NCBI GenBank assembly: GCA_963666485.2
Contig: CAXXUO010000001.1
Coordinates: forward strand, 384,001-448,000
Direction of reading: 5' to 3'
DNA from: Syntrophorhabdaceae bacterium
GTDB taxonomy: Bacteria > Desulfobacterota > Syntrophorhabdia > Syntrophorhabdales > Syntrophorhabdaceae
DNA length: 64,000 nucleotides
In this document: piece after piece, positions 30,001 through 36,000 of the stretch
How the letters are laid out: the number at the start of each line of letters is the position of its first letter
Position numbering within the stretch: the stretch's first letter is position 1
Program-made: the position numbers

Positions 30001-33000
30001 GTCTTGATGGCGTTGATGACATCCGACCAGGTCGGGACCGTGTTCCAGCCGCCCGTGCACTTTTCGTCGGCCATGCTTCTCAGGTAAAATTCCGGCTGTG
30101 TTTCCATTGCCATGAGGACCTTGCCTGCGGCAATGTAGCAGGGGAACGACAGGAACAGCGTGCCGCTGTGGTAGAACGGGTGCGGCGCCAGATATACGCT
30201 GTTGTAGCCTTCATTGTAGGTCATCGCGTTGCCGAGACCTATGTGGAGCAGGCTGTCGTGTGTGTGGGAGACCGGTTTCGGTGCGCCGGTCGTACCCGAC
30301 GTGAACATGAGCTCTGCCATGTCATCGCTTTTTGTCTCGACACAAACGGGTGTTGCATCGCCCTTTGTCGCAATTTCCATATATGATTTTGTTCCGGCGG
30401 GGATCTTGTCGCCGAGGCAAATAAAGTTCTTGCAATAGTCCATATCTTTCATTATGGGTTCTACGCGGGCGTTGAACTGTTCGCCGAACATAAACACTTT
30501 GCACTTCGTAACATCGGCTGCGTACTTGATGTCGTCGCTGGCAAAACGGAAATTAAGCGGAGTTACGGTTGCGCCGGTCTTGAGCACGGCGATGAAGCTT
30601 GCATACCATTCCATGCAGTTCATCATGAGGTGAACAACGATGTCGCCTTTCTTGATGCCGCAATCCTTGATCAGGTAGTTGGCGACGCGATTTGCCTGGT
30701 CATCGAACTCTTTCCAGGTCAGGCTCCGGCGCTGGTTCTTGGACGGATAGCTCTCGATAATGAACTCTCGACTGGGAAATTTGCTCGCATTGAGGCCCGA
30801 AAACATTGCAAAATTCATAATAACCCTCCTTGGTTAAACGCTTTTTTTTTATTGCTTTAAGTCCCAACAGCATGATAAAAAGAATTAGGATTCTTTGTCA
30901 ACAGTATTTTCAAAACCAAATACCTTCAGGAGGTCCCCCCCATGGCAGAAGTCTTCACACACATCGGTGAAATTTTGGCACGGAACGCGCGCATGTACCC
31001 CAATGATGTAGCTCTCGTTGAACGCATACCCGCTGAGAAAAAGAGAATCGAACTGACCTGGAAGCAGTTTGACGACCAGGCCAACCAGTTTTCCAACGCC
31101 CTGGCAAAGATGGGCGCGAAAAAAGGCGACAAGATAGTCCATTTCATGAACAACTCCACGAAATGGCTCGTTGCCTATTTCGGCATTATCAGGACAGGGG
31201 CCTGGGTCGTACCCCTCAATTTCCGTTTTACGGCAGAAGATGTCAAATATTGCAGTGACGTTGCAGAACCCTCCATCATGGTTTTTGACGAAGAGTTCAC
31301 AGATAGGATCGAAGCGATAAAAGATCAGCTCCCCGGCGTGAAGAAATACATTGTCGTAGGCGACAAGGTCCCGGCGTGGGCAGAGTCATACGATAAGGTC
31401 ATCGCATCCGAATCGACCGCAAACTTGAACGTTACGCTCCTTCCGACCGACGAGTGCGGTCTTTACTTCACATCAGGCACGACGGGCCAGCCGAAACCGA
31501 TCCTCCTGACCCATCTCAACATGTTCACCGCCTGCGTGACGGAGAATGCACACCACTATCAGAAAAAGAACGACTGCTTCATCCTCATCCCGCCGCTCTA
31601 CCATACGGGCGCGAAGATGCACTGGTTCGGCAGCTTCATCGTCGGCAGCAAGGCAGTTATCCTGAAAGGCGTGTCCCCGGAATGGACCCTCGAGGCAGTG
31701 AGCGAAGAGGGCGGCACCATCGTGTGGCTCCTCGTTCCCTGGGCGCAGGACATCCTGCTCAAATTCGACAAGGGCGAGATGAAGCCGTCAAACTACAAAC
31801 TCGACCAGTGGCGCCTCATGCACATAGGCGCACAGCCCGTTCCCCCGGCGCTCATCAAGCACTGGAAAGAATATTTCCCGGGTATGGACTACGACACGAA
31901 CTTCGGCCTCTCCGAATCGACCGGCCCCGGCTGCGTGCACCTCGGGCTTGGCAACGAGCATAAGATCGGCGCGATCGGCATCCCCGGCTTCAACTGGGAA
32001 TTCAAGATCGTTGACGAAAATAACGTGACCGTGAAAGCCGGCGAGCCGGGCGAACTGTGCGTCCGCGGGAACGGCGTCATGCGCGAATACTACAAAAACC
32101 CCGAAGCGACGAAGAAAAGCCTTATCGACGGCTGGCTCATGACCGGCGACATGGCGCGTGTAGACGAAGACGGATTCATCTGGCTCGTCGACAGGAAGAA
32201 GGACATCATCATCACCGGCGGCGAGAACGTCTTCCCCGTCGAAGTCGAGGATTTCTTCTATACCAACCCGAAGATCAAGGACGCCGCAGCGATAGGCATT
32301 CCCGATGACCGCCTTGGCGAGATCGTCACCGTCGTTATCGAGCTCAAACCGGGCGAGACAATGACCGAAGAAGAAGCGATCAAGTTCTGCGAGCCGCTGC
32401 CGCGGTACAAGAGGCCGAGGAAGGTCTTCTTCGCCCCTGTGCCCCGCAACCCGACCGGCAAGATCGAGAAACCCAAACTGAGAAAGCAGTTCTCAGGCAT
32501 GGAAGAGGCATTCAAGGTCAAATAAGGAACGAAACGTACGGAAGGCCGGGACGAAAGTCCCGGCCCTTCTTTTATAAACTCGTTCGGAAGAGGATCGAAA
32601 GTGTCTCCAAAAAAGCGTACCCTCGAAGAAACAATCGGCTACCACTTCAAAAACAGGGAGTTGTACAATCAGGCAGTGACCCACAGTTCCTGCTTCAATG
32701 AAAAGAGGGATGCCAAGCGCTCCGATAATGAAAAACTTGAATTCCTGGGCGATGCGATCCTCAACACGGTCATCAGCGTAATCCTCTACAAGCGCTTTCG
32801 CGGCAGGGACGAGGGCTTCCTGAGCAATGCCCGCTCGAGCCTCGTGAAGCGCGAGACGCTCACCGCCATTGCCAAAGAGATCAACCTCCACCATCACATG
32901 AGCTACGGGAACGGGGACGGGGTGGTGCCCGAAGAGTCCAAGGTCCTCTCGAACATGATGGAGGCCCTGATCGGGGCCCTGTACCTCGACAGCGGAATCC

Positions 33001-36000
33001 GCAACACCACGAAAGCCATTCGGAAACTCTTTCTGCCCTATTTTACCGAAGAAAAGCTCACCGAAAAGAACCCCAAGAACATCCTGCAGGAGCTTTCCCA
33101 GAAGAAATGGGGAATGCTCCCCCGGTACAAGTTCCCCCGCAAGATCAAGGACGGTTTCGCCGTCATGGTCTTCGTCGGAAAGGATTTCAAGGCGCGCGGC
33201 ACCGGGAAAAGCAAAAAAGAGGCCGAGCAGACGGCGGCGCGTTGCCTTTTGGAAGTACTGGCGGAGCAAGAGCGGGAAGAAGTGACCTGCTAAAACCGTA
33301 AAACGCAAGACGTAAAACGAAAGCGATTAGTCACATCTTGCGTCTTGCGTCTTGCGTTTTACGATCATTCCCACCGCAATCATCCCTACCAGCAACCCCA
33401 GACATACGACGATAAAATAGTCCCCATGCCTCACATAAAAGGTTTGAGTATTCTTCAGTGCGTACTTTCCGCGCAGCACCTCTTCCGTGAAAATCGGGGT
33501 CTTGCCCTCAATGCGTCCCCGCGGGTCTATTATGGAGCTGATGCCGGTGTTCGCGGCCCGCAGGATGTACCTGTCGGTCTCGATCGCACGGAAGACGTAG
33601 AAGGCGAAATGCTGGTACGGGGCGGATGTCCTGTTGTACCATGCGTCATTCGTCAGGTTGACGAGGACCTCAGCACCCTGCCGTACGGTCTCGTTCGTAA
33701 TGTAGGGGAAGATGCCCTCAAAGCAGATGAGGACGCCGATCTTGCCCACGTCCGTTTCGATGGGAAAGTGCCCCTCGCCGGGCTTGAAATCGGCGCCTAT
33801 CGCCGTCAGTTTCGCGAGGAACGGGAAGTAGGAGACCACCGGGGTGTATTCCCCGAACGGAACGAGGTGGACCTTGTTGTATATCCCGGTCGTATAGCCG
33901 CCGGAGTCGACATAGCGGACCGTGTTGAGCAGGTTGCCGGTGCTCAGGATCCCCACGGTGCCATAGAGCAGGCGGGACTTGAGCAAAACGGGGACGGATT
34001 TCACGTACCTGTACGCGGCCGGGTCCTTCTCAAGCAGGAACGGCATGGCCGTCTCCGGCCATATGATGATGTCCGCCCCCTGTGCGAGGCCGAAGCTCAG
34101 CCGGTAATACTTGTTCACCGTCATCATCTTGGACGATTCGTCCCACTTGATGTCCTGACCGATATTCCCCTGGACGATCGCGGCCTCGAATTTGACAGGG
34201 TCCCGGTCCTTGAGCCTCACGAAGCCGTATGCGAGGGACGAGGCAAAAAGGGCGGCGATAATAAGGGTGAAGATAACGGGTATCCTCCGGCGGGCCCACA
34301 CCGAGCAGATGATCCCGTTCACCGCAACGATGAGGAAAGAAATAAAGAACGTCCCCGTCACGGACACGACCTCGATCAGATGGAGAAAACCGAACTGGGA
34401 ATGGCCGAGGTATGACCAGGGGAAACCCGTCATGACCACGCCGCGCGCATATTCAAGGATGACCCATAGGGGCGCTGCCGCAAGGTAGACCGGGACGGAT
34501 GCCCTCTTCTCCAGGAAGGCGCAAGATAGCGTGAAAACACCCGAGTAAAGGGAGAGGTATGCAACGAAAAGGACGAGTATCAGGATGCTTAAGGGGATGT
34601 TGATCCCGCCGTACTGGTTCATTGCCACAACGACCCAGTAGATCGTCCCGAGCCAGGCAACGACGCCGGCCGCACAGCCCCTGAAAAAGGACAGACGCAG
34701 GTTGTCTTTATCGATGCTGTATAAAAGCGGCACAAGGGCGATAAAGGCGAGCGGGGAAAGGGATACGGGCGGCTGGACGGTAATGAGCAGGACTCCCGAG
34801 AGCATGGCAAGCCCGTACTGTTTCATGATCTTAGAAAAAAAGCCAGAGCCCGCCATACCGATGTAAACCTCCGTTACGAAATGATGCCGTTCTTTTGTTC
34901 CCGGTCAGGAAAGTTCAGCCGCGAGCGCCAGGAAATCGGGGTCGTCACGAACGAGCCCCATCAGTTTTTTCTCCCGGTACCGCATCTTCCGCGCCTCGGG
35001 GCCGCCCCCGACGTGATCATATCCCAGGATATGCACGAGGCCGTGGACGATAAGGCTAAGGAGCCTTTCGTAAAAAGGGATACCGGCGTTGCGGGCCTCC
35101 TCGGCGGCGCGCTCAACCGAGACGATTATGTCCCCGAGGGCCTCGCCGGGCATGCCGTCGAGATAGGAAAACGAGATCACGTTGGTCGGATGGTCTTTCC
35201 CGAAGAATTCCCTGTTCATGACGGTGATCTTCCTGTCATCAACAAGAAGAATGCTCAGGTCCCTATCCTGAAGCTTTAAAGAGGCCAGTAATTCCCCGGT
35301 TACGCTCGCGATTCGCTTTCGCTCGATCTTCATCAGTCTTTGGGAGTTTTTTATCAGTACCGCCATTCTGTGTCCTTTCCGGATATTCGACGCGATGATG
35401 GAAGATTCCGATGAGAATGGTGATGAAGCTCCTCTGGATCGCGTGGAGGTCCTTCAGCGTCAGCTCGCATTCGTCAAGCTGGCCGTCAAGGAATATGTTC
35501 TCGATGATGCGCTGCACGTGGAGCTCGATCCTTTTTGGTGTAGGATCGTCGAGCACCCGGGAAGCGGCCTCCGCGGCATCCGCCAGCATGATGATGCCGG
35601 CCTCTTTTGTCTGGGGCTTCGGGCCCGGATAGCGAAAATCCTTTTCCTCGATGACATGCAGCGACGGGTCTTCCTGCTCTTTCGCCTTGGTGTAAAAAAA
35701 GCTTGTGAGCGATGTGCCGTGATGCTGTTTGATAATAGCGGTCAATTTGCGCCCGAGCTTGTATTCTTTCGCGAGTTCGACGCCTTCCTTGACATGGGAC
35801 ATGATTATGAGGGAGCTCATGCTCGGGGTGATGCCCGCGTGGGCGTCATCCCCGGCCACCCTGTTCTCTATGTAATAGCGGGGCATCTTCAATTTTCCAA
35901 TGTCATGGTAGTATGAAGCGACCCGGGTCAAAAGCGGATGGGCCCCGATGGCCTCCGCGGCCGCCTTCGACAGGTTGCCCACTACGATGCTGTGATGGTA

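Follow-up and report, generated by a model that had tools for sequence, protein, structure and literature searches.

Genes and features of the rnc region

The window considered here is a 64,000-nucleotide stretch of DNA from a Syntrophorhabdales genome of 3.77 Mb (10 contigs, 99.1% complete); genomes of the order range, as assembled, from 1.5 to 6.7 Mb, and most are metagenome-assembled (MAGs). It carries rnc (32601..33293, plus strand), whose product is RNase III, with a whole-protein TIGR02191 score above the curated cut-off (205.7 vs 166.25 bits), and which is the first gene of an ancestral rnc-radical SAM-era-der operon. The gene is present in all 41 order genomes searched. Upstream of it lies an acyl-CoA ligase gene (30942..32525, plus strand; NCBIfam acyl-CoA ligase matches), a neighbor found in 27 of 30 order loci and given as context only. 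The first-pass annotation had noted that rnc has no era behind it, and this holds: the gene that actually follows is lnt (33327..34856, minus strand; TIGR00546 over cut-off), convergent on rnc. It belongs to a phoH-HD-ybeY-lnt cluster, likewise without era, which begins with phoH (ybeZ; 36950..37954, minus strand; PhoH match at E 4e-59, below the equivalog cut-off) and includes ybeY (34905..35366, minus strand; TIGR00043 over cut-off). YbeY, which works with Era in loading uS11 and in maturing the 16S 3' end, is retained.

The vacant era site

Across the phylum, the gene preceding era is the radical SAM gene in 10 of the 20 top era loci and rnc directly in 3 of 20; among longer outgroup regions, four of five read rnc-radical SAM-era and the fifth rnc-era, and both genomes mapped from the nearest family show rnc-radical SAM-era. 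As the radical SAM gene is the commonest predecessor of era in the phylum, ahead of rnc, the vacancy that is informative in this genome lies not behind rnc but at window positions 415-613. The Elp3/MnmL-like radical SAM gene (614..1609, minus strand), with weak TIGR01212/TIGR01211 matches below cut-off, is the orthologue of the outgroup gene between rnc and era; in 10 of 20 era loci of the outgroup, the gene that precedes era has it as its best match in this genome. Here it lies inverted and about 31 kb from rnc. Next to it, where era would be expected, is a 199-bp intergenic gap (415..613) with a dispersed palindromic repeat, in which an Era profile scan gave no match and hence no remnant of the gene. 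The gap is bounded on its other side by the 3' end of a Kdo-kinase-like gene (1..414, plus strand; whole gene C1:383008-384414, weak kinase matches), which is convergent on the radical SAM gene.

This arrangement recurs in the order. None of 30 rnc loci has era, whereas 19 of them have the radical SAM gene directly behind rnc; the gene that comes next can be seen in 11 loci and is in 8 of them the Kdo-kinase-like gene, the usual order occupant of the outgroup era position. The phylum operon rnc-radical SAM-era-der has accordingly been shortened to rnc-radical SAM, and distribution and synteny together show a single deletion of era from it in the ancestor of Syntrophorhabdales.

Distribution and detection of Era

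Era was recovered in 0 of 96 Syntrophorhabdales genomes as against 282 of 289 other Desulfobacterota (counted as present at E<=1e-30), so that the earlier statement that all other members of the phylum have Era is nearly but not fully accurate. The loss is fixed across four families, and the nearest family by 16S (86-87%) has era in 7 of 7 genomes. The Era-less set includes a one-contig 5.5-Mb genome and genomes of 3-10 contigs, and positive controls in the same genomes returned RbfA in 96 and YbeY in 94 of the 96. In the order-wide search 23 candidates per genome were scored, with 304 weaker matches lying outside those listed; among the listed matches, those to TIGR00436 extend over no more than the G domain (positions 1-193 of the 270 in the model). 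The best of them across the order reaches E 2.9e-25, while the weakest true Era matches elsewhere stand at 1e-43 and 2.5e-57.

For the genome of the window, the first-pass claim of Era absence is borne out by profile, six-frame and KH_2 scans, which revealed no full-length Era (~300 aa, a TRAFAC G domain at the N-terminus followed by a type II KH domain at the C-terminus). A profile built from 15 outgroup Era proteins and run against all six-frame ORFs matched only G domains of other GTPases, with no orphan Era-KH domain, although the same unfiltered scan catches even the split pieces of YihA. Frameshifts do occur in this assembly: an apparent broken era at C4:45059-45656 proved to be YihA split by a one-base shift. 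KH_2 scans returned uS3- and NusA-size matches plus weak ones below cut-off, whereas in a control genome its own Era KH was found at 5e-21. Four further order genomes (G056, G057, G076 and G003) likewise gave no Era-type KH match, in contrast to the control G185. Neither a GTPase-KH protein nor a spare protein with a KH domain has therefore taken the place of Era in this genome or, as far as the KH scan goes, in these four.

RsgA and the retained 30S machinery

The first-pass annotation had paired the loss of Era with that of RsgA, a circularly permuted GTPase, throughout the order. The Era part of this stands; the RsgA part does not. A PF03193 search confirms that the genome of the window is without RsgA but finds it in 7 of the 96 genomes of the order, including 4 from the same genus, and the two order proteins tested both exceed the TIGR00157 cut-off. 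Moreover, only 38 of 193 other genomes of the phylum have RsgA. With some 80% of the phylum sample devoid of it, RsgA absence is the phylum default, and the notion of an order-specific co-loss is rejected. In an RsgA tree, which took 17 of 31 loci (the remainder were dropped by a motif filter), the six order rows fall in four places with weak support, suggesting that the order copies may be sporadic gains.

The remaining assembly machinery is close to complete, as the first-pass annotation had stated for RbfA, RimM, RimP, Der, ObgE and RsmA. RbfA, RimM and RsmA exceed their NCBIfam cut-offs, RimP is detected at a best E of 3e-42, which is below equivalog cut-offs, and Der and ObgE were named by reading their sequences. 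YbeY, IF3 and RNase III are kept, as are THX and all 21 30S proteins (S1-S21), and searches with E. coli queries recovered homologues of RsmH, RsmG, RsmE, RsmB, RsmD, RimO, RsfS and YqgF. A general streamlining of 30S factors is therefore rejected. RF3, TrmB and RlmH are indeed missing from this genome, as had been noted earlier; TrmB is likewise lacking in the closest of the outgroup genomes tested, none of 3 order genomes but 2 of 2 outgroup genomes gave RlmH, and RF3 occurs in the genome G019.

16S rRNA and the search for compensation

The 16S rRNA is about 1,560 nt long, with a 19-bp leader-trailer helix and a canonical 3' end whose h45-GAUCA-CCUCC segment is identical to that of the outgroup; a loss or change of the Era-binding site is thereby rejected. 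So is a loss of Shine-Dalgarno (SD)-led initiation, as SD-like 4-mers precede 50% of genes versus 14% in controls. No order-specific change relative to the outgroup is seen in h23/h24.

One might still propose that an order-specific factor unrelated to Era took over its function, or that fixed changes in 16S rRNA or RbfA came to permit unaided folding of the platform. Consistent with this, the G671-C735 pair in the platform region has become A-U in 10/10 order sequences (0/27 in the outgroup) and A819G is seen in 9/10 (2/27), but about 40 columns distributed along the entire molecule carry an order signature, and these changes account for a few of them. Similarly, the DPR motif of RbfA, present in the five solved-structure sequences shown, reads DPG in 28 of 30 order sequences, while 28 of 30 outgroup sequences have the arginine. 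However, RbfA breaks 3 of 20 conserved columns, no more than the rate of its neighbor TruB (4 of 25), and DPR is intact in 18 of 18 Era-less genomes of the spirochaete phylum, so that the substitution, being neither in excess of a neighboring gene nor convergent, is rejected as compensation. By eye and in small samples, uS11, uS13 and bS21 display no gross change. Literature on RbfA suppressor alleles yielded nothing usable. With no compensation found in the 16S 3' end, h23/h24, the 30S protein set or RbfA, we regard such replacement or compensation as rather unlikely.

A proposed Era-independent route for 30S maturation

It is quite improbable that another retained GTPase (Der, HflX, LepA, BipA or ObgE) or a DEAD-box helicase assumed the 30S checkpoint role of Era. 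All five GTPases are retained in this genome, two ORFs with a DEAD motif (by motif only) exist, and Era interacts genetically with RbfA, KsgA, RsgA and YbeY (PMC10582724); against this, Der (441 aa), ObgE and HflX have no added KH_2 domain, and nothing positive points to a changed role for any of these proteins. Finally, that Era is present but too diverged for detection, or missed in a largely MAG-derived and occasionally frameshifted set from which only 23 candidates per genome were scored, is very hard to credit given the contiguous Era-less genomes, the recovery of single-copy controls, the strength of the weakest true matches elsewhere, the empty syntenic slot and a scan that finds split YihA but neither Era nor its KH half, and for the genome of the window this reading is already largely refuted.

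We consider it reasonably probable, then, that a single ancestral deletion of era, with no look-alike replacement, was followed by Era-independent maturation of the 30S platform by the retained machinery, the route itself, reconstructed from the factors that remain, being presumably a slower one. In such a route RNase III would cut the leader-trailer helix, RsmA/KsgA and RbfA would hold h45/h44, YbeY with uS11 would close the platform and assist in trimming the 3' end, and RbfA would be released by IF3 instead of RsgA, perhaps with help from small RNA or protein adjustments scattered over the subunit. Era might then be seen as an enhancer of rate and quality, dispensable for slow-growing anaerobes of stable habitats with one or two rRNA operons. 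Our literature search found no growth-rate paper for Syntrophorhabdales. The Desulfobacterota include slow syntrophs, and since almost all other members of the phylum, these included, keep era, slow growth cannot by itself explain the loss. Further, Era-depleted E. coli 30S subunits re-route their folding and are immature mainly at h23/h24 and h44/h45 (PMC6736133); as depletion leaves h23/h24 unfolded there, an unchanged order platform without Era counts against the bypass.

Implications

Era is essential in E. coli and is found in 97.3% of 15,274 non-CPR RefSeq genomes (PMC12641178 supplement), and a 2023 review holds that it was lost only by extremely reduced genomes. The loss in Syntrophorhabdales contradicts this view, and the freely accessible literature on Era loss and distribution yielded no report on the order. 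What supports the proposal that a non-reduced, free-living order matures its 30S subunits without Era is the set of 96 genomes with its positive controls, together with permissive profile and KH scanning and the scar left in the synteny. An ordinary-sized free-living anaerobic order with normal 30S parts yet no era lends support, at the level of gene content, to the view that bacteria can build ribosomes without Era. A fixed, order-wide loss with an otherwise complete set of 30S parts and factors amounts to a natural knockout, so that comparative work could test which function of Era defies bypass, and it restricts the use of Era as a marker or drug target meant to be universal.

The uniqueness implied by the first-pass annotation is not borne out, as Era is likewise missing from 87 of the 121 spirochaete-phylum genomes sampled. 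This suggests that Era losses are commoner than printed; it broadens the point and makes Syntrophorhabdales less special. One might speculate, with some reserve, that Era is not near-obligate outside reduced genomes and that Syntrophorhabdales and several spirochaete-phylum lineages independently evolved an undescribed Era-free folding of h23/h24, either via a factor or through rRNA adjustments; if true, comparing the Era-free lineages would expose the step for which E. coli cannot do without Era.

Comparison with other Era-less systems

Era is absent from the reduced Chlamydia, Dependentiae and most CPR/Patescibacteria (PMC10582724; PMC12641178), which share with Syntrophorhabdales a clade-wide lack of era along with viable ribosome assembly. 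Unlike them, the order is not genome-reduced (3.77 Mb here and up to 6.7 Mb in the order), and in place of shortened rRNA and lost ribosomal proteins there is a full-length 16S with an intact anti-SD and all 21 30S proteins. RimM, RimP, RsmG and RsfS are nearly absent in CPR, whereas homologues of all occur in this genome; and while the co-loss in such lineages often includes RbfA, the order has RbfA in 96/96 and YbeY in 94/96 genomes. Era is also patchy in Planctomycetota, Elusimicrobiota and Synergistota (PMC10582724, Fig. 1 legend), so that the literature already mentions, albeit without detail, non-parasitic phyla in which some members do without it; relative to these, the loss in Syntrophorhabdales is a clean one in a single clade, its deletion site has been mapped, and era is nearly universal in the outgroup (282/289).

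With respect to RsgA, one study (PMC7145577) describes an RsgA-independent route in which IF3 releases RbfA, a known route for RsgA-less genomes for which IF3 and RbfA are both present here; as about 80% of the phylum sample is without RsgA, nothing in this regard is order-specific. For Era itself the nearest experimental parallels are S. aureus, in which era can be deleted at a cost felt mainly in the cold (PMC6738653), and Era-depleted E. coli (PMC6736133): in both, 30S subunits can form by re-routed folding with little or no Era. The difference is that in those organisms the loss carries a heavy cost, as cold sensitivity, immature h23/h24 and, in E. coli, lethality, whereas in Syntrophorhabdales it has become fixed.

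Absence of Era from the Genome and the Order

The open reading frame at window 32601–33293, designated rnc in the first-pass annotation, encodes RNase III (TIGR02191, 205.7 bits), with lnt, ybeY, an HD-domain gene and phoH lying downstream on the opposite strand. Nearby, a single ORF (window 38405–39646, plus strand) fuses a response-regulator receiver domain to LpxC, and an intergenic short tandem repeat array (window ~29000–29200) contains ORFs reading as repeated 'TVQPFNRS' units. The claim that this genome (3,773,554 bases, 10 contigs, 99.1% complete) lacks Era is borne out by GTPase, KH_2 and six-frame Era-profile searches, all of which were negative. 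A PF01926 search yielded 50 matches, for 23 of which, including every match over cut-off, the ORFs were inspected: named by reading of their sequences, except for YihA, these are Der, ObgE, HydF, MnmE, HflX, two YchF-like proteins, FeoB, YihA, IF2, two SelB, BipA, LepA, CysN, two EF-Tu, three EF-G, a dynamin-like protein, a guanylate kinase and a secretion ATPase. The five KH_2 matches were interpreted as uS3, NusA, RNase Y, KhpA and Jag. An unfiltered scan of 50,014 six-frame ORFs (at least 40 residues) with an Era profile built from 15 of 20 loci of outgroup Desulfobacterota recovered only the G domains of other GTPases, with no significant match for the KH half; its sensitivity is seen in the recovery of both halves of a frameshifted YihA. 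This YihA/YsxC gene (L328, C4:45059–45656, minus strand) is broken in two by a single-base frameshift within a run of G residues, probably an assembly error, and the second SelB (C3:19430–21469, minus strand), of unusual composition, might reflect contamination or transfer.

The wider claim, that all Syntrophorhabdales are without Era, also holds: TIGR00436 identifies it in 0/96 genomes, every one of the order in the collection, spanning four families, 26 genera and sizes of 1.5–6.7 Mb, among them a one-contig 5.5-Mb genome. With 23 candidates scored per genome, the best E-value among the matches listed was 2.9e-25, and these matches (304 further ones being weaker) covered only model positions 1–193 of 270, in frames mostly of Der or MnmE size. 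A KH_2 scan of four well-assembled order genomes gave no Era-type match, the outgroup control being positive, and single-copy controls were recovered from the same order genomes (RbfA 96/96, YbeY 94/96, rnc 41/41). The RbfA counts leave out a second, outgroup-like copy (L073, G008:C414) in an order genome with 9% contamination. Each GTDB species is represented by a single genome in the collection, so the cultured type species is presumably among the 96. The nearest rnc relatives among named records are Syntrophorhabdus sp. (86–90% identity), Syntrophorhabdaceae and Syntrophorhabdales, which bears out the taxon first assigned; Era is missing in two named genomes among them and present in three named genomes from other phyla. 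Elsewhere in the phylum, Era was detected at E<=1e-30 in 282/289 genomes, each at least 90% complete (weakest 1e-43), the seven negatives being scattered drafts, one of which represents its family alone; among order genomes included in that phylum sample, Era was found in 0/12. The family closest to the order by 16S (86–87% identity) has Era in 7/7 genomes.

The Deletion Site

Among the 20 best-scoring outgroup era loci, the gene immediately upstream is a radical SAM gene in ten and rnc in three, der lies downstream in 12, and the order rnc-radical SAM-era is seen in 4/5 longer regions. In Syntrophorhabdales, the radical SAM gene immediately follows rnc at 19/30 rnc loci; of the 11 loci in which the following gene can be seen, none has era there and eight have a convergent kinase-like gene. 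In the present genome, the radical SAM gene (window 614–1609, minus strand) still faces the kinase-like gene and has been parted from rnc by a later rearrangement. At the empty era slot is a 199-bp gap (window 415–613) carrying a palindromic repeat, in which no era remnant was found. One 27-base arm of this long palindrome has 93 matches in the genome (<=4 mismatches, both strands), marking it as a dispersed REP-like element. The simplest reading is that era was deleted once, in the ancestor of the order; the 96 Era-less genomes are one event, not 96 independent ones. The radical SAM gene itself, which accompanies rnc and era across Desulfobacterota, reached no NCBIfam cut-off (MnmL/Elp3 matches were weak) and possibly functions in RNA modification.

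Retained 30S Machinery and Possible Compensation

Other 30S factors were said to be kept, and RbfA, RsmA, RimM, RimP and YbeY are indeed found, as are the full set of S1–S21, THX and IF3 and, with E. coli queries, homologues of RsmH, RsmG, RsmE, RsmB, RsmD, RimO, RsfS and YqgF. THX (L327, C1:1310962–1311072, minus strand) scores over the TIGR04560 cut-off. The 16S 3' end, GAUCA-CCUCC, is identical in 10 order and 27 outgroup sequences, and no change specific to the order is seen in h23 or h24. A helix of 19 bp can form between leader and trailer. SD-like 4-mers stand upstream of 1,296/2,580 called genes versus 371/2,581 control positions. With proteins and factors kept and these parts of 16S unchanged, the site for Era binding is preserved and era has been lost specifically, outside any general streamlining.

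Era is gone and the remaining 30S machinery is kept. Drawing on published work, we somewhat favor an Era-independent bypass for 30S maturation, wherein RNase III cleavage would contribute to subunit maturation, RsmA and RbfA would act at h45/h44, YbeY-uS11 would act at the platform, and IF3 would release RbfA. Published studies describe re-routed folding in Era-depleted E. coli particles (PMC6736133), tolerance of era deletion by S. aureus (PMC6738653) and displacement of RbfA by IF3 (PMC7145577). Slow syntrophic growth with 1–2 rRNA operons would lower the cost of the loss; since other Desulfobacterota keep era, these traits are at best permissive.

Rather less probable is that Era function was replaced, or that compensation is distributed. 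The 16S pair G671-C735 is A-U in 10/10 order versus 0/27 outgroup sequences, and A819 is G in 9/10 versus 2/27; both changes, which lie among ~40 order-signature columns, may be regarded as compensation candidates. The RbfA motif is DPG in 28/30 order sequences and the usual DPR in 28/30 outgroup ones. This change was rejected as compensation because RbfA breaks conserved columns at a rate like that of TruB (3/20 and 4/25; other neighbors 3/53, 4/74 and 1/16) and because DPR is kept in 18/18 Era-less genomes of the spirochaete phylum. No compensation for Era loss is visible in RbfA and 16S as compared. That another of the retained enzymes took over the role of Era is improbable, and that Era is there but escaped the profile and KH_2 searches is hardly credible.

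RsgA and Other Missing Factors

RsgA had likewise been described as missing throughout the order; it is missing from this genome but present in 7/96 order genomes, with unrelated neighborhoods at the six loci read. Only 38/193 phylum genomes outside the order have it. Its absence is the default of the phylum, and this half of the claim is ordinary; published work gives RsgA as non-essential (PMC6912228) and as present in 83.9% of non-CPR genomes (PMC12641178). RF3, TrmB and RlmH, also listed as missing, were not found in this genome. RF3 is present in a congener, G019, where prfC adjoins rsgA (L036, G019:C20:260–3787), the genome under study having neither. TrmB is also absent from the closest outgroup genome examined. 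RlmH occurs in 0/3 order genomes (G000, G056, G076) versus 2/2 outgroups (G185, G149), a lead to a possible second order-level loss.

Era Loss in Other Lineages

A statement in a 2023 review confines Era loss to extremely reduced groups (Dependentiae, Chlamydia and most CPR), and a figure legend there gives Era as patchy in Planctomycetota, Elusimicrobiota and Synergistota (PMC10582724). In a 2025 survey of 15,274 non-CPR genomes, 97.26% carry era; the main text leaves Desulfobacterota, spirochaetes and syntrophs unmentioned, S. aromaticivorans is on the genome list, and no table of per-genome presence appears among the files listed (PMC12641178). No earlier report of the Syntrophorhabdales loss was found in the literature searched, subscription literature excluded.

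Within the phylum to which a record titled Spirochaetales belongs (G391; G396–G515; 121 genomes, completeness of at least 95% requested), Era was present in 34/121 and missing in 87/121 at E<=1e-30. The 20 Era-less genomes listed measure 2.0–4.4 Mb, and two negatives re-tested at E<=1e-12 gave G-domain matches alone; three named Spirochaetia records have Era. RbfA is present in 18/18 of the Era-negative genomes, and some of these sequences, we presume, resemble those of Leptospira and Brachyspira. As Era is missing from these ordinary-sized genomes, its loss in such genomes has happened more than once, the spirochaete-phylum losses apparently being a larger, unreported set. The Syntrophorhabdales loss is real, clean, order-wide and with its scar mapped, but not unique; it corrects a printed generalization on Era loss and supplies a natural knockout.
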